A stretch of DNA of 32,000 nt from Nostoc punctiforme PCC 73102 (GCF_000020025.1 NC_010628.1:570001-602000), one strand, 5' to 3'. Positions 3,762 through 19,293 are shown, counted from the first letter of the stretch. The notes: generated by a model from the sequence alone, not told the origin. A program made the numbers and translations.

Positions 3762-4199
3762 TTACTCTGGCTTGCTATCTGGCTCAGTGTATTTGCAGAA
3801 AACATTTATCCCAATTTTTAGAATATATAATACGACAATTGTGGCGATCGCACCATCAATCGGAATGCCATGCACTGCTGCAACAGCAACCAGGGAGCCA
3901 ATGATACTGTTGAGCAGAGAAGAACTACCAGGATTCTTGGTGTATTCTTTGATTGTGCCCCTTAAACCATCATCACCACAGATTTCCGCGCGGATTTCGT
4001 CAAGGGTCAGCTGCAAAAGAGATTTTTTGCCCCTACTATAATCTGTTTTGCCGACTTTCTCTTGCCAGAGTGTATCAAAACTTGCTTCTAGGTTGCCGTT
4101 ATGCTGTTGCAGGGTAGTAAGTGCATGTTGTGCTGGGGTGTCATTTGGCAGAAGTTGCTGAAGTTCTTGGATTTCGACAGAGGTTAATTGAGCATTCAT
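3762..4199 (-). CDS. Hypothetical 145-aa protein with a helical N-terminal part and a hydrophobic C-terminal region
   Basis: ATG-started ORF. The C-terminal segment SLLNSIIGSLVAVAAVHGIPIDGAIATIVVLYILKIGINVF is hydrophobic. No family recognised. Confidence 0.55.
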   Translation of the reverse strand: MNAQLTSVEIQELQQLLPNDTPAQHALTTLQQHNGNLEASFDTLWQEKVGKTDYSRGKKSLLQLTLDEIRAEICGDDGLRGTIKEYTKNPGSSSLLNSIIGSLVAVAAVHGIPIDGAIATIVVLYILKIGINVFCKYTEPDSKPE

Positions 4200-4221: not shown

Positions 4222-5639
4222 GGCTCTCACAGACTAGATATGTAAAATTAACAAAAGAAATACCAATTTAGTAAAACCCTTCTTCTAAAACTATTAAAGT
4301 TAGTTAAGCCATAAGCTCTGCATTTAATTAGCTTAATCTTCTGATTAATTCCTTCTACAATACCTTGAGTAGTTCGGCGATCAAAATAAGCAAGAATTTC
4401 ATCTATCCATCTACTTATAGTTCGGCAACTTTTGGGAAATAATTTATAAGCTCCTTGAGTCCATTCCAGGAATTTATCTAAAGCTTCATCACTGGTTATG
4501 GGACTTTCAAATATATCTCTAATGGCTTCTTTATTTCGATACATTTCTCCTAAGTCTGGAGCAACTTTTTTGAGTAAATCTATCTGAGCTTGTTCCTGAA
4601 AACTGAGGCATTCTTTTTTCTTTAACAAAGGGTATTTACTGTGAGTTAAGCCAGTTAATTTCTTTTCTCTTTCTTGGCGATTTTTAATTTTTAAGGCTGC
4701 TCTTTTTTCCTGTTTTCTTCTTGCGTCTAACTCCTGATTTATTTGTTTCATGACATGGAATCTATCTGCTACTACTTGAGCATTCGGTAGCATTTCTTGG
4801 ATTAAACTTTTATAGGGTATCCATAAGTCTATGCTGACTTCTTCTATTTGATTTAATATCTCTGAACCCAGACTGGATAGGTATTCTGCTATAACCGCTT
4901 TATTTCTCTTCTCTAACAATGCTATCGGTCTTCTTGTTTCTAAGTCTACTAATACTGCTGCATAATTCTTTCCTCCTTTTAATTGCGTGATTTCATCTAT
5001 TCCTAACTTTTTTATCTGGTTAGGTTTTTCTTTTAGTAGTTCTGATTCTAATTCTTTTAATATTGTTTCTATCTCAGATGAACTCATTCTATTTCTTCGG
5101 GCTGCATTCTCTACATCAGTTTCTAACACTTCCTTAATTACTTTGTTCGCTAATCTTTTTGTATAGGTTCTTCTACTTTTTACAAAAGATAGTTTCTCAC
5201 TAAATACTTTTTGGCATTCTGTACACTTTAATTGCCGACGATTTACTTTTAAAAATACTTGATAGTCACTCATGGGTATATCTCTGACTATATACCAATG
5301 ATTTTGATGAGTTTTATTAGTTGTCTTTCCACACCGAGGACACTGACCAACTTTTGATTGATTTTGGATTTCAATTACGATTTCATCATCAGTGATAAAA
5401 TCGTAATTCAATACTTTGATATCTTCAATATTAATAACTTTAGTAATAAAATGAAGTAAGGGATTAGAAGGCATATTTATTAAAATATTAATTCTATTTT
5501 CAATATTTCTTGTGTTTTATATTCTCAATTGCTTCTGTATTTCCTTCTCTGCACAGGCTGTTGCCACCGATTACTGCTATTCTATTGAGATATATTGAAT
5601 TTATTTATACTATTTTAACATAACTACTCTGGAAGAGCC
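4222..5639 (-). mobile_element. ISL3-family insertion sequence (1418 bp), apparently intact
   Basis: Terminal inverted repeats GGCTCTCACAGACTAGATATGTAAAATTA (4222->) and GGCTCTTCCAGAGTAGTTATGTTAAAATA (complement from 5639) match at 23 of 29 positions. A perfect 8-bp direct repeat ATTATTTA flanks the element at 4214-4221 and 5640-5647. It holds a single 408-aa transposase ORF. Confidence 0.85.
4248..5474 (-). CDS. ISL3 family transposase
   Basis: The N-terminal zinc-finger-like pairs CPRCG...CTEC and the central ADRFHV motif are typical of ISL3 (IS204/IS1001/IS1096/IS1165) transposases. Confidence 0.85.
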   Translation of the reverse strand: MPSNPLLHFITKVINIEDIKVLNYDFITDDEIVIEIQNQSKVGQCPRCGKTTNKTHQNHWYIVRDIPMSDYQVFLKVNRRQLKCTECQKVFSEKLSFVKSRRTYTKRLANKVIKEVLETDVENAARRNRMSSSEIETILKELESELLKEKPNQIKKLGIDEITQLKGGKNYAAVLVDLETRRPIALLEKRNKAVIAEYLSSLGSEILNQIEEVSIDLWIPYKSLIQEMLPNAQVVADRFHVMKQINQELDARRKQEKRAALKIKNRQEREKKLTGLTHSKYPLLKKKECLSFQEQAQIDLLKKVAPDLGEMYRNKEAIRDIFESPITSDEALDKFLEWTQGAYKLFPKSCRTISRWIDEILAYFDRRTTQGIVEGINQKIKLIKCRAYGLTNFNSFRRRVLLNWYFFC

Positions 5640-5644
5640 ATTAT

Positions 5645-6064
5645 TTATAGAGTATTTGTTAGTTCCTGAATCAACTCTTCAGGTGTGATAATTCTAGGAG
5701 TAGCAACTGGAAAATCTCTAGGGTTGCGAGTAATAATAGCATCCAAGTGATTGAGTACCGCAGCGCTGTATTGAATAGCGTCTTCAAAATCTCTAAAATT
5801 AGCAGTTAATGCAATGTTGATTGTGGTACTGTCTACTGTTGCGACTTGACAGAAGGTTACAATTCTATTTAAAAGCGATAGAGCAGATGCTCGACCTTTA
5901 TCTTTTCGAATGATGTAGTAGAGGTCACTAAAAGTAGAAGCAGAAAGATAACCTTCTATTTGTTTTTGATAAATAAATGAGAATACTTGTATAGTATTGC
6001 TGTAAAAGGAATGGCGTTCAAGAGCAAAATCCAAAATTATATTAGTGTCTAATAAGACTCTCAC
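5645..6064 (-). CDS. vapC: PIN-domain ribonuclease toxin (VapC-like)
   Basis: N-terminal (M)RVLLDTNIILDF, a later FRDFEDAIQ and ITRNPRDF are acidic PIN signature positions. The GTG start overlaps the upstream antitoxin stop by 4 nt (GTGA). Confidence 0.8.
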   Translation of the reverse strand: MRVLLDTNIILDFALERHSFYSNTIQVFSFIYQKQIEGYLSASTFSDLYYIIRKDKGRASALSLLNRIVTFCQVATVDSTTINIALTANFRDFEDAIQYSAAVLNHLDAIITRNPRDFPVATPRIITPEELIQELTNTL

Positions 6065-6366
6065 AGATTATGTTTCTCCCTCAAATATTCCCATTTGGCT
6101 TGGTCAGGGTCAAAATCTGAAGGAGTCGGCTCTGTACTTTTCAACCATTCTTTTAAAATAGGTATAGAGCATTCCACTATTCTTTTTTGCTTTTCAGGCT
6201 GGGACTGAATTTGATTTTCTCTAGAACTTTCCAAGGATGGAACTGGTTGCAAAATAATCACTTCTACCGTCCCTGGAGCAATATTTAGAGGTTCGTGAAT
6301 AATTAAATTACCGGATTCATCAATTGTGGCGTTGAGCTTATAGGCTTGCATATTGGTTTTCCTCAT
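6061..6366 (-). CDS. Putative antitoxin partner of the PIN toxin
   Basis: 101-aa ORF with a 4-nt overlap onto the toxin start. The N-terminal segment GNLIIHEPLNIAPGTVEVIIL resembles the small beta-domain antitoxins (AbrB/DUF104-like) found with PIN toxins. The start may be the internal Met (MQAYKL). Confidence 0.6.
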   Translation of the reverse strand: MRKTNMQAYKLNATIDESGNLIIHEPLNIAPGTVEVIILQPVPSLESSRENQIQSQPEKQKRIVECSIPILKEWLKSTEPTPSDFDPDQAKWEYLREKHNL

Positions 6367-6398: not shown

Positions 6399-6578
6399 TT
6401 ACAGATTATGTTTCTCCTTCAAAGCTTCCCATCTGGCTTGGTCTGGGTCAAAATCAGAAGGCGTGGGTTGTGTTTTTTCAAACCAGCCTTGCAAAGCTTT
6501 GATTTTTGTTTGTCTCTTCGGCTTTTCTGGCTGTGACTCAAAGGATGGAACTGGCTGCAAAATAGTACCTGAATCAAC
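6399..6578 (-). pseudogene. 5'-truncated paralogue of the adjacent antitoxin gene
   Basis: Minus-strand translation gives AIVDSGTILQPVPSFESQPEKPKRQTKIKALQGWFEKTQPTPSDFDPDQARWEALKEKHNL*. This is colinear with the C-terminal two-thirds of the 6061-6366 product (ILQPVPSLES...PTPSDFDPDQAKWEYLREKHNL*). An in-frame stop lies just upstream, and the N-terminal part is missing. Confidence 0.6.
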
Positions 6579-6607
6579 GATCGCAGTTAGCAGTTATAAG
6601 TGAATGT

Positions 6608-6796
6608 CTTATCGTCACCAACATTACAACATTAAGTCTTAACGCTATAACTTTAAGGCTTAACCTTATAACATTAAGGCTTAACGCTACAACATTAAGG
6701 CTTAACGCTATAACCTTAAGGCTTAACCTTACAACATTAATCACCAGCATTATAAGATTAAGGCTTAAGGTTACGACATTAAGCCTTAACATTACA
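6608..6796. repeat. Tandem array of about 9 copies of a 21-nt unit (consensus ACATTAAGGCTTAACGCTACA)
   Basis: Units were parsed by eye at 6608, 6629, 6650, 6671, 6692, 6713, 6734, 6755 and 6776. Most contain the near-palindrome TTAAGGCTTAA. Confidence 0.9.
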
Positions 6797-6890
6797 ACTT
6801 TTTGACAAAAGCTTATGCGATCGCTCTTTAGGGTAGTGTAATCTGTGCGATCGCTTGCAATACTTAACCAAAACTTATTTCAGGTGCTGC

Positions 6891-6925
6891 CAGAACCCCG
6901 ACTTGTTGAAGAAGTCGGGGTTCTG
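6891..6925 (-). terminator. Strong hairpin directly 3' of the displaced end of the STAND gene
   Basis: Perfect 14-bp stem cagaaccccgactt / aagtcggggttctg with a 7-nt loop. It begins 2 nt after the minus-strand stop at 6928-6930. Confidence 0.65.
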
Positions 6926-6927
6926 AA

Positions 6928-7087
6928 TCAACCTAGCTCATCCCGCGCTGTCCAAATTACCTCGCGCACCTCTCCCGCACACTCTTCACCCGTCGCCTCA
7001 CGCCAAATAAATTGAAACTGACTTTCGCCTAACTGCTGGAGCATACGGGCTAAATCATTAATACGATAATCAATCCAATCTTCATTA
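6928..7087 (-). pseudogene. Displaced 3' end (52 codons plus stop) of the CHAT-STAND-TPR gene, separated from it by an IS insertion
   Basis: The frame encoding NEDWIDYRINDLARMLQQLGESQFQFIWREATGEECAGEVREVIWTARDELG* joins in frame to codon 8093-8095 of the large ORF once the IS is removed. The 81-aa ORF in the track starts inside the IS. Confidence 0.6.
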
Positions 7088-8088
7088 GAGTTGTCGGGAA
7101 ATAAAAGATAAGTGAGGCAATGCTGGTCTTGTAATTGGGATTCTCTTAAGCAGCCATCAAGTAGAAGTTCCATAATCCTGCTGCGGTCAGCATCAAATGG
7201 TCATCAAAGTTTTCAATCCGATTACGATAAATGACACTGGCGGCGTTGTAGCGCTTCACACCAGCAAAGGCATTTTCGCAAACTACACGGGATTGACTCA
7301 ATTGACGATTCTCCGTTTTTTGAAGGTCACTTAACTTGCCCCCTTTGGGCTTTTTGTGAGGAAGATGGAGATTGTCATACTGCTTCTGTAATCCCTGAAA
7401 GCCCGAGTCTACTTCAATCGGAATTTCATCAGGCACACTACCTGCAATGTCATCTTCGTCATGAAAACGTTTGTCATGCAGTTTGCCTTCTCGTGCTTTG
7501 CTTAAGATCAAGACCCGTTTGGTTTCATCAACTGCCGCCAAGTGTTTACGCGTATGACGTTTCTTTTTACCGGAGTAATTCTGTTGTTGTTGTTCTCTTT
7601 CTTGAGGTCGCGCAATTGGGCGTTCTGTCCCATCAATCATCACTCGTTGCACTCCTGGAAAGCGTGACAAAAATGCTTCAATGCTTTCGAGATGGCGTTC
7701 CGGCAGCGCCATCTTCTGTCCCAAAGCCGCTTCTAATATTGGCTGCAATCGATGCATCCACTCATGTGCCTGGGAGCGATGCATATCAAAGAGCAGTCCC
7801 GCCACATCAAAGGTCGGATAACATTTGAAATAGAAAAGGATGAAAAACAATTTGTCTTGGGCTGTAAGTAAGCGGGCTTTGCGTCCTCCACCCAGGCCAC
7901 GTTGACGAGGCTTGGCCTGTTGAGTATCTAGGTACATCGTGGTAAACGTGGGCAAAAGGGCATCAAATGCTTTCCGGTTCAACCCAGTTAATGCCCTCAA
8001 CAGTCGGTCTTGCTTCAGCGCACCTTCAATATTCAGCATCATTCTTCCCTACCACTGCTGTCTATTCTCTCTTATTTCCCGACAAGTC
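7088..8088 (-). mobile_element. IS5/PIF-Harbinger-type insertion sequence (~1.0 kb)
   Basis: Imperfect terminal inverted repeats GAGTTGTCGGGAAATAAAAGATAA (7088->) and GACTTGTCGGGAAATAAGAGAGAA (complement from 8088). They are flanked by TA (7086-7087 and 8089-8090), or alternatively TTA (7085-7087 and 8091-8093). Single transposase ORF. Confidence 0.75.
7146..8042 (-). CDS. DDE transposase, IS5/Harbinger-like (DDE_Tnp_4-type)
   Basis: The motifs MIDGTERPI, NYSGKKKRHTRK, EVDSGFQG and RVVCENAFAGVKRY match the D-D-E layout I recall for HTH_Tnp_4/DDE_Tnp_4 transposases. Confidence 0.75.
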   Translation of the reverse strand: MMLNIEGALKQDRLLRALTGLNRKAFDALLPTFTTMYLDTQQAKPRQRGLGGGRKARLLTAQDKLFFILFYFKCYPTFDVAGLLFDMHRSQAHEWMHRLQPILEAALGQKMALPERHLESIEAFLSRFPGVQRVMIDGTERPIARPQEREQQQQNYSGKKKRHTRKHLAAVDETKRVLILSKAREGKLHDKRFHDEDDIAGSVPDEIPIEVDSGFQGLQKQYDNLHLPHKKPKGGKLSDLQKTENRQLSQSRVVCENAFAGVKRYNAASVIYRNRIENFDDHLMLTAAGLWNFYLMAA

Positions 8089-11000
8089 TATTATGCTCTA
8101 AGTCAATGGCTAAAACACGAATGTAAATTTGCAAAGCCTCAGCGTAATTTTCTTGAGCTTCTAAAACCCTTCCCCACTTACCCAATGTTGCTGAAGCCAA
8201 ATACCAATCGCGGAATTGCTCATAAATTTCCCAGGTTTTTTGATAATAATCAACAGCCACATCAAACAGCCGTTGCTCTTCGGCTACCCTGCCCAGTTGG
8301 TGATAGTCACTAGCAGCACTGTACAAATCCCCGGCATCTTCATATATCTTCAGCGCCTTGTTGTAGTAATCAACAGCCACATCAAACTGCCGTTGCTCTT
8401 GGGCTACCCTGCCCAGTTGGTGATATTCTTTAGCAGCACTGTACAAATCCCCGGCATCTTCAAATATCTTCAGCGCCTTGTTGTAGTAATCAACAGCCAC
8501 ATCAAACTGCCGTTGCTCTTGGGCAATATTGCCCAGTTCGTGATATTCTTTAGCAGCACTGTACAAATCCTCGGCATCTTCAAATATCTTCAGCGCCTTG
8601 TTGTAGTAATCAACAGCCACATCAAACTGCCGTTGCTCTTGGGCTACTATGCCCAGGTTGTGATATTCTTTAGCAGCACTGTACAAATCCCCGGTATCTT
8701 CTTTTATCTTCAGCGCCTTGTTGTAGTAATCAACAGCCACATCAAACTGCCGTTGCTCTTGGGCTACCCTGCCCAGTTGGTGATAGTCACTAGCAGCACT
8801 GTACAAATCCCCGGCATCTTCATATATCTTCAGCGCCTTGTTGTAGTAATCAACAGCCACATCAAACTGCCGTTGCTCTTGGGCTACTATGCCCAGGTTG
8901 TGATAAAAAACAGCAATTTTGTCATTCACTGAAAAGTCATTTATAGCTATCAATTCATCTAAAATTTCTTGATAAACTTTTCTCGCTTCTTCCAAAGAAG
9001 CACTTTGCAGTGCTTCGTTAGCTTCATATCCTCGCAGATACATCCAGAAATCCAAAGCATCTTTACCTTTTACTTTTGCATCTGCCAAGTGAATGCCAAT
9101 TTGGTTGAGCGCCCGTTGTTGCAGGGCTTTAAATTCAGGTTTGCGCCCTAAACGCTGATACACTTCTCCCAAAGCTTGTAGAATCGATTGTGCCTCAGCC
9201 CATTCCTTTTGATGTTCGGCAAGGCGTAAGTTTTGCAACAGATTTGGTTCTTCAACTCGCAGCACAAAAGTTGCCAGTTCTGCATTGCTGATGAGTTGCT
9301 CACGGTAATAATTAGCAAACCCTGCGTATAAAATCAGCAACTTTTTTTCGAGTTCGTTAATCACCTCCTGGGAAGTAATTGTGTTTAACTGCTGACGCAA
9401 ATACCAAGGTAGTGCTGGGTGAATTTTGTAGATAGTCTCACCCAAATATTCCAAAACACCTGCGGCTGCGGCTTCATTAAAAATTCTCATCCAATCTGGT
9501 TTTTGCAAGTTCTCCCCAAACACCGCTTGATAAGCTTGTCCAAATCCATTATCAGGACTTTCTGAAAAACTATACAGCCAACCTGCATCAACCCGTTCTG
9601 AAAACAGTGCCAAAAATGGTAGATGCTGACGTGTTCGTTCCGACAACTTAGCAAAAGAATAATCCAACGACACAGTAAGAGATTTTTCTCTCCCTTCTTC
9701 CTCTTGTCCCCTAAAAGTATCCAACCCCCGCCGCAGTGCCTCAATTAACTGCACAGGTGTCTGTGTCTTCAAATGCGGTAACACCACCCGCAAAGACAAC
9801 GGATGTCCCCCCAACAATTTCAACAATTCCAAATACTCTGCTGGTAGGTTTTTTCTCTCCACGCCCACCGTTTGCAAAATCTTCGCGGCTAACTCTTGGG
9901 CATCCGCTTCAGACAACCCCCGCAAGTTGATTAAACTATACCCACAATCTAACCAAGGTTCTTCGCGGCGACTGGTAATTAATACCCAAGCTTTACCAAC
10001 CCGCAATTCTTTAAGAAACCGCTTCAGCTTGTTTCTCTCTTCCCCACTCAATAATGGTTCATTCCCCGTGGGGAAACCGTTGACAGGTTCAAAGTTATCC
10101 CAAATCAACAAGCAAGGATTAGTTTGCAGATATTGCTGCACCACATCCTCTTGCTTATCTGGCATCATTTGGGAAAATCTCTCACCTCCTAACGCCCTAC
10201 CAATTTGGTTAATTACCTGACTCAACCCCGCGCCCTGTTCAAAGGAGGTGAAGAACATACCGCTTGTACGTCCTTGGGTATCATCTAACCACCGGGCGAA
10301 ACCTGCGACTAACTCAGTCTTCCCAACGCCGCCCATTCCCTGCACTAACACAACATGATTTTGCCGAAATGCTCTCTCTAAACGCAAAATCTCATAATCT
10401 CGCCCAATAAAACCATAAGCACTTTCATCAGGTAAACCTACAGCTTTACTATTTTCTGGGGTGTTGTCTGTTTGCGCCATCAAATCGGCAAAACTGGGTG
10501 CTGTCTTTTTAGGAACAAAAGGCGTATAGGGTTCCTGCTGATACAACACCGGCACAAGCCAATCTTGTAAAGGTAAATTTCCTTTGGGACTGGGACGCAT
10601 TTTGTCAATAGACATGGACTTCCGCCCTGCTGCAACTGCTGTGGCGATACACTCTCCCCTGACTAATTCCCCATACAACCGCCCAATAAAGTGTTCTGCA
10701 CCTTTGGCGTAAACTGAATACGCCATCGCTACTACACCCTTAGCCCCCAATTTCACCAACTGTCCCGCCACAGAAGAAAAAGCTTCTTCGCCTACTTGTC
10801 CAGACTGGCAAGCATTCAGCACAAAAATTGGCACGCGACAATCCGTTAAATATTGGGCAATTTCTCTAGCGCTGACAGCTTGCTCATTTCCCTGTTCATC
10901 CTCAAAAACTAAAACTCCCTGAGTCTCGCTGTCAAAATTCCCATGTCCATCAAAATGGACGATATGATAAAAACCCTTATGCGCTTGCAGTTCCGCTTCA

Positions 11001-11623
11001 AATGCTTTCAAGCTAGGGGGACGCAATACCTTAAGATTGACTCGCTGACGTATCGGTTGCAGCGCCGCCAGCAGGGGACGGGCAATGGTTTTAAACCCAA
11101 CGTCTTGCCGATCGTAAGGACGGGCAATAACTAGTAAAATATTCAGTTGGTCATCGGGCATTGCTGGCAATGGTGCTTTTACGCCCTGACTGCTGAGACT
11201 GCGATACATTCCCGCCAGTGAAGGTGCAAGAAATTGATAATCGGGGGAATATAGCAACTCCCAAGGCAAATTCAGCACGTTGGCGTTATCAGAAATGATA
11301 CCCAGTTCACACTTATCTAGCCCTTCCCGTATCGCTTCCTGAAAAAACTCTCTTCCTTTCTCTGTACTGCGAAATACTAGCTCAAATAAATGTTGTCCCC
11401 AGTGCTGTAATTTTTGTTCAATTTTTACAGCGTTATCTGGAAAAATACCGTAAGGAAACTTTAGATAATCTTCTAAATACCAGCGCAACTCAGCCGCGTT
11501 TTCTTTATCGAAGGGTTGCTGGAAGGCGACTTCTGACGCAAAGCGAGGATTTTCATATCCGCGTTGCCAAGAAAGTTGGATTTTGTCGTTTTGATGCGTA
11601 ATCCGCAACCAATTCTGCGCCAT
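8072..11623 (-). CDS. CHAT-domain protease / NB-ARC-type STAND P-loop ATPase / TPR-repeat protein (NLR-like), with its 3' end truncated by an IS
   Basis: CHAT region with His in IVHFDGHGN and Cys in FVLNACQSG. Walker A is LVQGMGGVGKTEL and the Walker B-like motif is CLLIWDNFE. The C-terminal ~400 aa are TPR repeats, including six near-identical 40-aa units. The likely ATG is at 11623; the track ORF starts at a GTG at 11638. The last 5 codons plus the stop are read from IS sequence. Confidence 0.85.
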   Translation of the reverse strand: MAQNWLRITHQNDKIQLSWQRGYENPRFASEVAFQQPFDKENAAELRWYLEDYLKFPYGIFPDNAVKIEQKLQHWGQHLFELVFRSTEKGREFFQEAIREGLDKCELGIISDNANVLNLPWELLYSPDYQFLAPSLAGMYRSLSSQGVKAPLPAMPDDQLNILLVIARPYDRQDVGFKTIARPLLAALQPIRQRVNLKVLRPPSLKAFEAELQAHKGFYHIVHFDGHGNFDSETQGVLVFEDEQGNEQAVSAREIAQYLTDCRVPIFVLNACQSGQVGEEAFSSVAGQLVKLGAKGVVAMAYSVYAKGAEHFIGRLYGELVRGECIATAVAAGRKSMSIDKMRPSPKGNLPLQDWLVPVLYQQEPYTPFVPKKTAPSFADLMAQTDNTPENSKAVGLPDESAYGFIGRDYEILRLERAFRQNHVVLVQGMGGVGKTELVAGFARWLDDTQGRTSGMFFTSFEQGAGLSQVINQIGRALGGERFSQMMPDKQEDVVQQYLQTNPCLLIWDNFEPVNGFPTGNEPLLSGEERNKLKRFLKELRVGKAWVLITSRREEPWLDCGYSLINLRGLSEADAQELAAKILQTVGVERKNLPAEYLELLKLLGGHPLSLRVVLPHLKTQTPVQLIEALRRGLDTFRGQEEEGREKSLTVSLDYSFAKLSERTRQHLPFLALFSERVDAGWLYSFSESPDNGFGQAYQAVFGENLQKPDWMRIFNEAAAAGVLEYLGETIYKIHPALPWYLRQQLNTITSQEVINELEKKLLILYAGFANYYREQLISNAELATFVLRVEEPNLLQNLRLAEHQKEWAEAQSILQALGEVYQRLGRKPEFKALQQRALNQIGIHLADAKVKGKDALDFWMYLRGYEANEALQSASLEEARKVYQEILDELIAINDFSVNDKIAVFYHNLGIVAQEQRQFDVAVDYYNKALKIYEDAGDLYSAASDYHQLGRVAQEQRQFDVAVDYYNKALKIKEDTGDLYSAAKEYHNLGIVAQEQRQFDVAVDYYNKALKIFEDAEDLYSAAKEYHELGNIAQEQRQFDVAVDYYNKALKIFEDAGDLYSAAKEYHQLGRVAQEQRQFDVAVDYYNKALKIYEDAGDLYSAASDYHQLGRVAEEQRLFDVAVDYYQKTWEIYEQFRDWYLASATLGKWGRVLEAQENYAEALQIYIRVLAIDLEHNRLVGK
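8161..8932 (-). repeat. Intragenic tandem 120-bp (40-codon) TPR-encoding repeats
   Basis: Five complete units lie at 8281, 8401, 8521, 8641 and 8761, with diverged flanking units. Unit 8281-8400 equals unit 8761-8880 at 119/120 nt. The distal 90 nt of each unit differ at only about 5 positions, clustered at 8331-8344 of the first unit. Confidence 0.9.
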
Positions 11624-11764
11624 ACCTACCGCCAACACTAGTTTAGATGCTACTTTATCTTAGTCATTCACGCAGAGGTTAGCTGATTACGCAAATGAAA
11701 TCAGTTAATTTGCGTCAAATCGTGGCGAATTGAGGGTTTAAATTTAAACGCATAGGCGCTTCTT

Positions 11765-18255: not shown

Positions 18256-18729
18256 ATGATTAAATCTTGGATGGTGATTGGGGGCGTGGCTTTCTTAGTT
18301 GCTTTAGCCGCTAACGTGATTACGCCTAGCGATCGCCAATGGTTCAAGCGCTTACAACGACCAAGATGGCTAACTTTTGAGGGCGCGATTCCAATTATCT
18401 GGACTGTAATATTTATTTGCGGTGCTTGGTCAGCTTATATTGTCTGGGAAAAGGATCCAGGAAGCACCTCAACCTGGTTAATCATGGGTTTATATCTGCT
18501 GTTAGAAATAATTACTATCGCCTATACGCCTGTAATGTTTAGGCTTCGCAGTCTGAAAGTGGGTACAATTCTTGGAGGCACAGGTTTTATCATTGGTGCT
18601 TTATTGATACTTGCGGTCTTAGGTATTTCTGGTTGGGCAGCATTGCTACTAGTTCCTTATTTGCTTTGGAGTCCCATTGGTACTTACACCACTTGGCAGA
18701 TGATCGGTCTCAATCCTCAAGATGCCTAA
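18256..18729 (+). CDS. TspO/MBR-like tryptophan-rich membrane protein
   Basis: 157 aa with about five hydrophobic helices. The segment WFKRLQRPRWLTF...IIWTVIFICGAWSAYIVW resembles the TspO W-x-x-L-x-[KR]-P-x-W signature. Confidence 0.6.
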   Translation: MIKSWMVIGGVAFLVALAANVITPSDRQWFKRLQRPRWLTFEGAIPIIWTVIFICGAWSAYIVWEKDPGSTSTWLIMGLYLLLEIITIAYTPVMFRLRSLKVGTILGGTGFIIGALLILAVLGISGWAALLLVPYLLWSPIGTYTTWQMIGLNPQDA

Positions 18730-18819
18730 AATTCGCACCAACGAATGATTAAAGCTATGCCCTAAATTGTCAAACTTGCAGTGTATAACTTGACAAAATA
18801 CACAAAGCTTGAGGTCATT

Positions 18820-19293
18820 ATGATTCCATCTTGGCTAATAATTGGGGCTGTAACTTTCTTAATCGCTCTTGGAAGTTTCTTGATTACGCCGCGTGATGTT
18901 AAATGGTTTGCACTATTAAGTCGCCCTCGCTGGCTAGTTTTTGAGCCTCTGATTCCACTCATCTGGACTGTGATTTTTATTTGCGGTGCAGCTTCAGCTT
19001 ATGTTGTGTGGGAAAAAAATCCCGGAAGCCCAATTACTTGGTTAATAATGGCTTTGTACCTTTTGGTGGAAATTATCACCGTTGCCTACATACCTATAAT
19101 GCTGAGGTTTCGCAGTCTCAAAGCAGGGGAGATTCTTGGGCTAGTTGGTTTGATTTCAGGCGTTGTCCTCGCAATCTGCGTTTTGCCGATTTCTCTAATG
19201 GCGGCGCTGTTACTCCTTCCCTATCTAATTTGGACTCCCATTGGTACTTACACTACCGACGAGTTAAAGGAACTGAATCCTCAAGATGCATAA
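18820..19293 (+). CDS. TspO/MBR-like protein, tandem paralogue
   Basis: Colinear with the upstream gene (WFALLSRPRWLVF...LIWTVIFICGAASAYVVWEKNPGS). I prefer the ATG at 18820, preceded by GAGG. The track ORF starts at a GTG at 18781. Confidence 0.6.
   Translation: MIPSWLIIGAVTFLIALGSFLITPRDVKWFALLSRPRWLVFEPLIPLIWTVIFICGAASAYVVWEKNPGSPITWLIMALYLLVEIITVAYIPIMLRFRSLKAGEILGLVGLISGVVLAICVLPISLMAALLLLPYLIWTPIGTYTTDELKELNPQDA

Follow-up and report, generated by a model that had tools for sequence, protein, structure and literature searches.

A CHAT-STAND-TPR protein of Nostoc punctiforme and its small all-alpha neighbour: a candidate two-gene NLR-like module with a truncated reference allele

This report concerns a minus-strand gene for an NLR-like protein, and a small gene downstream of it, in a stretch of 32,000 nucleotides from the cyanobacterium Nostoc punctiforme PCC 73102 (GCF_000020025.1, NC_010628.1:570001-602000; hereafter the window). 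A first-pass annotation, made from the sequence of the window, had read the large gene as a stand-alone bacterial NLR. We find that the large protein is, with virtual certainty, a fusion of a CHAT protease, an NB-ARC-type STAND ATPase and tetratricopeptide repeats (TPRs), that its gene is very probably linked in function to the small gene, and that in the window its 3' end has been severed by an insertion sequence (IS). The two genes may constitute an NLR-like module for cell death or defence, with the small protein as both the substrate of the protease and the membrane effector, a composite reading for which we hold the case to be evenly balanced. The features of the two genes are the following, with positions counted from the first letter of the window and residues from the ATG of the large gene.

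8093..11623, minus strand: main part of the gene for the CHAT / NB-ARC-type STAND / TPR protein, codons 1-1177, ending where the IS is inserted.
10499..11623, minus strand: N-terminal CHAT region with predicted caspase fold, residues 1-375; the Pfam CHAT match covers residues ~106-342 (residues 111-347 of the open reading frame counted from its GTG).
10943-10945, minus strand: proposed catalytic His227, in the conserved HFDGHG motif.
10808-10810, minus strand: proposed catalytic Cys272, in the conserved NACxS motif.
9374..10411, minus strand: NB-ARC/AP-ATPase-type STAND module, residues ~405-750, supported by Pfam, motifs and Foldseek.
10319-10321, minus strand: Lys435 of the Walker A motif GMGGVGKT (residues 429-436), invariant in paralogues.
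8090..9373, minus strand: helical linker and TPR sensor region, with the TPR_12 match and tandem repeats.
3762..4199, minus strand: conserved downstream partner gene (ACC79252.1, 145 amino acids, all-alpha), with homologues in other cyanobacteria.

The open reading frame (ORF) of about 1180 codons that had been reported on the minus strand is present at 8072..11638 and encodes 1188 amino acids when counted from its GTG. Since all orthologues of the gene begin with MAQNWL and the public N. punctiforme product (ACC79257.1 / WP_012407282.1 / B2J749, named only 'tetratricopeptide repeat protein') has 1183 amino acids, the ATG at 11623 is the true start. The profile searches that the first-pass annotation had suggested were significant for CHAT (86.2 bits against a Pfam cut-off of 24) and for NB-ARC (25.9 bits against 23.5, with partial coverage), and gave 150 bits for TPR_12. 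These matches are far beyond chance; AAA_16, nSTAND1 and NACHT stayed below the Pfam cut-off. The four motifs quoted earlier were all found, namely IVHFDGHGN at residues 221-229, FVLNACQSG at 267-275, GMGGVGKT at 429-436 and LLIWDNFE at 505-512. Profile hidden Markov models, motif conservation and structure-based searches with Foldseek agree on the three-domain architecture, and the NLR-like reading of a CHAT protease, a STAND ATPase and a TPR sensor is borne out by them.

The HFDGHG and NACxS motifs occur in all 120 of 120 homologues of the large protein, and H227, G228, C272 and K435 are invariant in a paralogous family at 28-30% identity, the His and Cys proposed as catalytic being the conserved dyad. 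Compared by sequence with the chains of the PDB, as a single sequence and as a 13-sequence profile, the CHAT region gave no significant match; the best was the solved CHAT protein 8rot_B (E 0.11), whose VLAAC segment aligns weakly with the Cys segment. The fold was confirmed through a structural model instead. An AlphaFold2 (AF2) model of residues 1-884, built from 40 orthologues and paralogues, had a mean predicted local distance difference test score (pLDDT) of 77, and in a Foldseek search of the PDB its N-terminal part matched SAVED-CHAT 8tl0 (E 8e-6), Csx29 8eey_B (E 2.6e-5) and 7zoq_A (E ~3e-5). The profile match above cut-off, the dyad and the caspase-like fold of the model all place the region in the CHAT family, as a putative cysteine protease.

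The ATPase part carries the NB-ARC motifs in their proper order: Walker A, Walker B (LLIWDNFE), sensor-1 (VLITSR, 547-552), GxP (GGHPLSL, 605-611) and an MHD-like motif (KIHPAL, 733-738) in which the paralogous family has Gln in place of His. Walker B was found in 119 of the 120 homologues and the TSR of sensor-1 in 117. The best structural match of this part in the PDB was Apaf-1 (1z6t, E 4e-9), and full-length Apaf-1, the plant resistosomes ZAR1, NRC2/3/4 and Sr35, and CED-4 were also matched. Ordered motifs, profile and structural similarity thus converge on a STAND module of the NB-ARC/AP-ATPase type, for which ligand-triggered nucleotide exchange and oligomerisation would be expected from the behaviour of the family. 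The protein is in effect an 'all-in-one apoptosome', a CHAT protease fused to an NB-ARC module of the Apaf-1/CED-4/plant-NLR type and to a TPR array.

About 400 residues of TPRs had been proposed at the C-terminus. The repeats are present, but the TPR_12-type part is shorter, about 330 residues (~850-1178), and follows a helical region. It includes a tandem array at 8247-8905 with a 120-bp unit (40 amino acids) in 5.5 copies that are 93% identical at the DNA level; a long ORF on the plus strand (8216..8932) is a by-product of these repeats. We extracted 172 repeats from 41 Nostocales orthologues. The period is strictly 40 residues, and there are 1-10 copies per protein. Nine positions of the unit have an entropy of 0 (Y6, L9, G10, A13, F19, A22, Y25, Y26 and K28), positions 4, 5, 11 and 33 reach 2.5-3.0 bits, and positions 1, 8, 14, 15 and 27 lie at 1.7-2.2 bits. 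When L9-G10 are taken as canonical TPR positions 7-8, most of the variable sites fall at TPR positions 2, 3, 6, 9, 12 and 13. These belong to helix A, the helix known from characterised TPR domains to line the concave groove where ligands bind. The TPR region is only 72% identical to its counterpart in Nostoc edaphicum, where the CHAT region reaches 95% and the ATPase 91%. Highly internally conserved, recombining repeats have already been reported for fungal and bacterial NLRs (Dyrka et al., 2014, 2020); near-identical variable repeats are thus expected for the class, yet their sequence pattern supports a diversifying ligand sensor.

The reference allele of this gene is incomplete, as the following features show.

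7087..8089, minus strand: IS5-family insertion sequence, with a DDE_Tnp_4 transposase at 7146-8042.
8072-8074, minus strand: annotated stop of ACC79257.1, the final five residues of which (RLVGK) are IS-encoded.
6928..7083, minus strand: severed 3' end of the CHAT gene, 51 in-frame codons (6931-7083) encoding EDWIDYRINDLARMLQQLGESQFQFIWREATGEECAGEVREVIWTARDELG, with the stop at 6928-6930.

The IS5-family element splits the gene after codon 1178. It has imperfect terminal inverted repeats of ~25-26 bp (7086-7111 and 8065-8090, starting AGAGTTGTCGGGAAATAA and AGACTTGTCGGGAAATAA) and a target duplication of 3 bp, ATT on the plus strand, at 7084-7086 and 8090-8092. Because the last five codons of the ORF and its stop are sequence of the terminal inverted repeat, the stop at 8072 is an insertion artefact, and the gene as first delimited is a 3'-truncated allele. 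Orthologues from Nostoc, Calothrix, Microcoleus, Lyngbya and Coleofasciculus end in sequence that matches the severed tail, which is conserved across cyanobacterial orders. Body and tail together give a reconstructed protein of 1229 amino acids, compared with 1230 in two close orthologues. The insertion has therefore deprived the reference allele of a conserved terminal segment of its sensor. Since the element replaces the last 51 residues, and a second IS and a toxin-antitoxin (TA) pair separate the gene from its partner, the N. punctiforme copy of the module is probably degraded and impaired.

Two sequence peculiarities lie just beyond the severed tail. A near-perfect hairpin with 17-nt arms (CAGAACCCCGACTTGTT and AAGAAGTCGGGGTTCTG) stands at 6891-6925, directly 3' of the original stop; it lacks a T-run and is therefore not a canonical intrinsic terminator. 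Between the tail and the TA pair, at 6615-6798, a 21-bp unit of three related heptamers (AACGTTACAACATTAAGGCTT) is tandemly repeated in 8.5 copies that are 74-78% identical; the array recalls the short tandemly repeated repetitive (STRR) sequences of cyanobacteria and creates a spurious ORF at 6574-6792. Promoter and terminator scans yielded fewer matches than shuffled sequence and were uninformative, and a search of the window for Rfam families and tRNAs found none.

According to the first-pass annotation, the large gene stands without a co-oriented partner. This is correct for its upstream side, but downstream a conserved partner on the same strand is found at 3762-4199. A small gene encoding 142-145 amino acids without a Pfam match lies downstream of the CHAT gene, on the same strand, in all three complete genomes checked. 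Nostoc sp. PCC 7107 and Microcoleus vaginatus have kept the small gene although their wider neighbourhoods bear no relation to the window; its product is 91% identical to the window copy in N. edaphicum, 77% in PCC 7107 and 50% in Microcoleus. With the small protein as bait, a scan of one genome per GTDB species gave 267 loci, of which 80 were fetched; these were examined by tblastn, and 70 had enough flanking sequence to be judged. A full orthologous CHAT-STAND gene stood upstream of the small gene and on the same strand in 32 of the 70 loci; fragments of it were found in nine, some of which may be assembly errors of metagenome-assembled genomes, and a paralogous CHAT-STAND-TPR gene, mostly convergent, accompanied the small gene in another nine. 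When the large protein served as bait, three of four metagenomic orthologous loci also carried the small gene. The stop of the large gene is separated from the start of the small one by 1 nt (TGA-t-ATG) in one Coleofasciculaceae and one Leptolyngbyaceae genome (L068 and L082) and by 321-460 bp in three further genomes; in most Nostoc the spacer measures 1-2.6 kb and is filled by TA-like ORFs. Ancestrally, the small gene was encoded immediately downstream of the CHAT gene. In addition, the small protein and the CHAT domain diverge in a correlated way (Spearman 0.65).

The pairing extends beyond this family of large proteins. Four remote homologues of the small protein, with E-values of ~1e-6 to 4e-4 to the family profile, were looked up. 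The contigs of one (P0282) were too short to judge, and the other three (P0332, P0346 and P0358) are each convergent with a CHAT gene, with an overlap of 4-20 nt. The CHAT proteins beside them have the reverse arrangement, an N-terminal TPR part and a C-terminal CHAT domain, with HFSCHG and LSACE(T/A)G motifs. The small family thus accompanies at least three divergent CHAT lineages, which points to the protease domain as its functional partner. Taking these data together, we regard it as highly likely that the CHAT-STAND gene and the small gene are functionally linked.

Two stretches recovered with the small gene deserve mention for their company. In Nostoc foliaceum (L052, 651-9062) it stands beside an AAA_16 NTPase (374 amino acids), a TIR-AAA_35 protein (511 amino acids) and a WD40 protein (1185 amino acids), a cluster of NLR-like conflict genes. 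Another locus (L084, 7787-8684) encodes a remote homologue of the small protein that carries DUF6887 as an N-terminal fusion; a DUF6888 gene precedes it, and a Phage_holin_4_2 gene lies just upstream.

An AF2 model of the small protein, built with 30 homologues as input, was of good quality (pLDDT 86, predicted template modelling score (pTM) 0.81) and consists of eight helices. Three N-terminal helices (7-49) are followed by a low-confidence loop of variable length (50-60) and by two helices that carry the invariant R70-x-E72-x-C74-G75 (RxEICGD) motif. Helices 93-109 and 116-136 form a hydrophobic hairpin, in which the Kyte-Doolittle mean over 19 residues exceeds 1.6 over ~94-135. Within this hairpin D115, T120, K128, N132 and C135 are invariant polar residues, which suggests that the small protein is more than a passive anchor; two cysteines are invariant in the alignment. 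The protein has the features by which we provisionally define the family, namely ~130-150 amino acids, three N-terminal helices, R-x-E-[IL]-C-G-[DN], a C-terminal hairpin closing with K-I-G-x-N-x-[FY]-C-x-Y, and an adjoining CHAT gene. When 1.84 billion proteins were searched exhaustively with the family profile, only 146 representative clusters were recovered. One cluster member is named 'DUF2335 domain-containing protein' at NCBI, a label that our Pfam scan did not reproduce. Pfam gave no match to the small protein at E <= 0.001; at E <= 10 the sole match was to CUE (E 0.023), which is sub-threshold, so that a UBA/CUE-like reading of the three N-terminal helices is only a faint hint. No NCBIfam model matched, EACC1 included, and Foldseek found no significant analogue of the model in the PDB or BFVD. 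The PADLOC candidate model PDC-M35B matched weakly the small protein (E 7e-5), its paralogue (2e-6) and the remote homologue P0358 (6e-4), while PDC-M35A matched none of the adjacent large proteins checked. We also considered that the small protein and the N-terminus of the large one might share a homotypic adaptor or an amyloid-type motif; this was rejected, hhalign giving a probability of 0.4%.

If the two proteins act together, how might they do so? A ligand, most likely a phage or other non-self protein, would bind the TPR array and thereby release the ADP-locked NB-ARC module. Nucleotide exchange would then drive oligomerisation, and the gathering of CHAT domains would switch on proteolysis by proximity. 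These steps are proposed by analogy with Apaf-1, plant resistosomes, Avs proteins and the NACHT- or TPR-fused gasdermin proteases, and a phage protein is our default guess for the trigger. The small protein would be the dedicated substrate and the executioner, its cleavage freeing or exposing the hairpin domain to damage the membrane, with the result that the infected cell in the filament would be arrested or killed. For this last role the gene linkage and the gasdermin precedent serve as our guides. It is tempting to go one step further and to see in the small protein the founder of a family of caspase-activated, all-alpha membrane executioners, analogous to gasdermins with an unrelated fold and serving at least three CHAT lineages in cyanobacteria; we put this forward tentatively, as possible rather than probable.

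Several observations weigh against the composite reading. We can name no cleavage site in the small protein, the sole low-confidence internal loop (50-60) varying in sequence and length, and a membrane-damaging role is suggested by hydropathy alone. No Avs or bNACHT model of PADLOC matches the large protein, which gave only generic TPR, CHAT-segment (BovA, SAVED_CHAT) and weak PDC-S53 matches; as it belongs to none of the validated defence families there, the defensive function is deduced from architecture. The CHAT and ATPase parts are conserved like the neighbouring housekeeping genes, an unusual trait in fast-evolving immune genes. In more distant CHAT-STAND-TPR families (27-38% identity) the small partner is missing. 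Finally, in 16 of the 70 loci no CHAT or STAND gene lies within 10 kb of the small gene, and in four it adjoins what Pfam identifies as a split pair of P-loop (447 amino acids) and TPR (564 amino acids) genes that is protease-less. The small partner can consequently persist, and perhaps act, without a CHAT domain.

The distant families without a partner bring to mind another explanation, in which the large protein is a self-sufficient NLR whose CHAT domain cleaves host or phage proteins generally and the small gene is unrelated or accessory. General cleavage of this kind is exemplified by the type IV Thoeris caspase-like protease, which cleaves EF-Tu, and by SAVED-CHAT cascades. The three-domain fusion already holds sensor, switch and effector, the 3.4 kb downstream of one of the four metagenomic orthologues (L097) hold no small gene, and in Nostoc TA pairs and IS elements have come between the two genes. 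Against this stand the survival of the adjacency through full reshuffling of the wider neighbourhood, the 1-nt spacer in two lineages, the correlated divergence of the two genes, and the recurrence of the pairing with a paralogous CHAT-STAND family and with architecturally different TPR-CHAT proteases. We therefore consider a self-sufficient large protein unlikely.

The loci without a protease, about a quarter of those judged, and the protease-less P-loop/TPR pairs keep other roles of the small protein in play. It might be a true partner that is not an executioner, serving instead as a membrane anchor or sensor in the manner of EACC1, or as a securin-like pseudosubstrate inhibitor. A hydrophobic hairpin would suit an anchor, and the persistence of the small gene where the CHAT gene has been lost, or beside a split pair that has no protease, is what one would expect of a harmless regulator; small transmembrane proteins have also been paired with caspase fusions and a sensor role suggested for them (Kaur et al., 2020). 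By contrast, the invariant polar residues of the hairpin and the two invariant cysteines suggest a specific activity, and the AF2 model is one compact domain, which suggests a soluble resting state. The small protein has no domain in common with the N-terminus of the large one through which homotypic docking could occur, and no NCBIfam family, EACC1 included, matches it. On balance, such a regulatory role appears to us rather improbable. As to the split pairs themselves, paralogues of the small protein are convergent with a 447-amino-acid KAP/AAA-like P-loop gene and a 564-644-amino-acid TPR gene in L062, L071, L076 and L078 (~11.5-15.2 kb), an arrangement that looks like a CHAT-less version of the module.

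The remaining question is whether the composite reading is right to see a conflict system here at all, and it is best approached through the surroundings of the genes, where two further features need to be listed.

4248..5474, minus strand: ISL3-family transposase gene, in the spacer between the PIN and small genes, which measures 19 bp in N. edaphicum.
5645..6366, minus strand: PIN_3 toxin gene (5645-6064) preceded by a small antitoxin-like gene (6061-6366), both lying between the two genes of the module.

In N. edaphicum the order is Era - PFK - AstE-like - CHAT-STAND - TA (PIN) - small gene - His phosphatase, and the flanking genes are 91-97% identical between the two genomes. This order recurs in the window, where the IS5-family element has entered the large gene near its 3' end and the ISL3 element has been added as well; terminal repeats of the latter could not be clearly resolved. 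Gene order and flanks indicate that the module has been inherited vertically in this lineage and is not a recent island. The first-pass annotation was right about the adjoining TA pair and the two IS elements, all of which are present, and overstated the case in speaking of an accessory island.

The slot itself is unstable. L027 shows a clean loss of the large gene from its place between AstE and the small gene, and unrelated ORFs, among them one for a TPS-domain exoprotein, occupy that place in L030, L033 and L034. It is thus deleted or replaced at the syntenic position in four Nostoc genomes and fragmentary in nine loci, and is no universally conserved housekeeping gene; none of the outcomes that the first-pass annotation had named as refuting its reading was observed. 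Such absence, replacement and fragmentation argue against a housekeeping role and fit a costly, dispensable conflict gene. These data bear on another interpretation, namely that the large protein serves filamentous cyanobacteria as a regulatory protease, in development or in housekeeping. The model would be HetF, whose cleavage of PatU3 plays a part in cell division and in the differentiation of heterocysts. The CHAT and ATPase parts, as noted, share 91-95% of their residues with N. edaphicum, much as the flanking PFK, Era and AstE-like genes do, orthologues at 65-74% identity are spread across Nostocales and Oscillatoriales, and NCBIfam reports a weak match to HetF. That match scores 28.5 bits against a cut-off of 1200, however, so that the protein lies outside the HetF equivalog. 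The losses at the slot and the IS disruption in the window speak against a developmental protease as well, as do sensor repeats whose number changes and whose helix-A positions, presumed to be turned towards the ligand, are variable, the different loci occupied in PCC 7107 and Microcoleus, and the company of TA, TIR-STAND and WD40-STAND genes in some genomes. We judge this interpretation very improbable.

Additional observations were made around the module. The TA pair is an insertion and not core to it. In most Nostoc (L001, L004-L047) one or two TA-like pairs of ~90-101 and ~118-153 amino acids lie on the same strand between the module genes; the toxins were PIN_3 in the cases checked, and the TA pair of N. 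edaphicum ends 19 bp from the small gene. A 53-amino-acid ORF at 6399-6560 repeats the C-terminal half of the 101-amino-acid antitoxin-like protein (6061-6366) (…PTPSDFDPDQA(K/R)WE.L.EKHNL) and reflects a partial duplication of the antitoxin gene in tandem. N. edaphicum has an insertion (L001, 3017-8095) between PFK and the AstE-like gene, made up of a ParE TA pair and a paralogous CHAT-STAND-TPR gene (1238 amino acids, 28% identical) with a small gene of its own (product 49% identical). Farther from the module, an ORF of 152 amino acids at 458-916 has no Pfam match, contains about six G-[IVN]-R-P-[IV] repeats every ~14-20 residues, and is 86% conserved at the syntenic position in N. edaphicum. 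At 18256-18729 and 18781-19293, on the plus strand, two TspO/MBR-family genes (157 and 170 amino acids) stand in tandem.

How does the proposed module relate to known systems? Its closest relative in the ATPase is the Apaf-1/CED-4 apoptosome, together with caspase-fused Apaf-1-like STAND proteins: the NB-ARC motifs, the caspase-fold output and the repeat input at the C-terminus are alike. Here, however, the protease is fused directly and belongs to the CHAT clade instead of caspase C14, whereas Apaf-1 recruits its protease through a CARD; the sensor is made of TPRs and not of a WD40 propeller, and there is an additional, dedicated small partner gene. The layout is that of the bacterial gasdermin operons, where the gene of a caspase-like protease has as its neighbour that of a small protein which attacks the membrane once cleaved; bacterial gasdermins adjoin, and are cleaved by, CHAT proteases, some of which are NACHT- or TPR-fused (Johnson et al., Science 2022). 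The partner described here differs in being an all-alpha protein of 145 amino acids with a hydrophobic hairpin, for which cleavage and toxicity are only predicted. A gasdermin fold was considered for it and rejected, as neither Pfam nor the PDB offered a match.

Another two-component arrangement was described by Kaur, Burroughs, Iyer and Aravind (eLife 2020, 'System 4'), who found EACC1, a small membrane component, with an N-terminal caspase-superfamily peptidase carrying variable modules, among them STAND NTPases and repeats, in a system enriched in multicellular bacteria. EACC1 is the 5' gene, has a single Gly-rich transmembrane helix with alpha+beta extensions, and occurs mainly in actinobacteria and proteobacteria. 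By contrast, our small gene is 3' or convergent, and its product is all-alpha with two hydrophobic helices and known so far, among the named genome matches, from cyanobacteria alone. The large protein scored 21.5 bits against the cut-off of 140 of the NCBIfam model 'caspase, EACC1-associated type', and we do not assign it there.

With Avs and bNACHT proteins the large protein shares the tripartite logic of effector, STAND module and a repeat sensor expected to bind a foreign protein; it differs in that its effector is a protease and that a second gene is present, and neither an Avs nor a bNACHT model of PADLOC-DB v2 matched it. Repeats in NB-ARC/TPR proteins of multicellular bacteria, with CHAT as a frequent N-terminal domain, were described by Dyrka et al., and TPR units of 93% identical DNA, a strain-variable copy number and variation at few positions are features in common with those NLRs. 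Their effectors (the Bell domain and amyloid BASS motifs) are, however, prion-like, whereas here no motif is common to both proteins. Finally, Craspase (type III-E, in which the TPR-CHAT protein Csx29 cleaves Csx30) and SAVED-CHAT systems have a similar CHAT fold and are defence proteases with a dedicated encoded substrate, and the domain order of Csx29 is found again in the TPR-CHAT proteins that accompany remote relatives of the small protein. The module differs from both in having neither a CRISPR nor a cyclic-nucleotide context, in its STAND activation, and in a small protein unrelated to Csx30. Membership of Craspase was tested and rejected.

That the class of CHAT/NB-ARC/TPR fusions is known and catalogued was rightly stated at the outset. 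In the searchable literature we found no description of the small partner or of its recurrence with other CHAT architectures, of TA insertions nested between the module genes in Nostoc, or of the IS truncation of the reference allele; searches by accession number, by approximate locus tag and for PDC-M35 returned nothing relevant. Members of both CHAT-STAND-TPR families carry the names 'tetratricopeptide repeat protein', 'Tfp pilus assembly protein PilF', 'Photosystem I assembly protein Ycf3' or 'GTPase SAR1 family protein' in the databases. These names are misleading, being drawn from the TPR or the P-loop part only.

Although CHAT-NTPase-repeat fusions of filamentous cyanobacteria have been catalogued for twenty years, we know of no trigger or proteolytic target identified for them. 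The conserved and tightly linked small protein is a concrete candidate for such a target, and the hypervariable TPR positions show where the ligand interface should be sought. For annotation, the N. punctiforme reference gene has to be regarded as an IS-truncated allele. If the proposed module is real, a CHAT/Apaf-1-like/TPR protein and a small protein would make up a minimal two-gene 'apoptosome plus executioner' pathway in multicellular bacteria. The caspase-executioner logic that gasdermins exemplify would then have a second solution, built on an unrelated structure, and this would bear on the origin of regulated cell death in multicellular prokaryotes.

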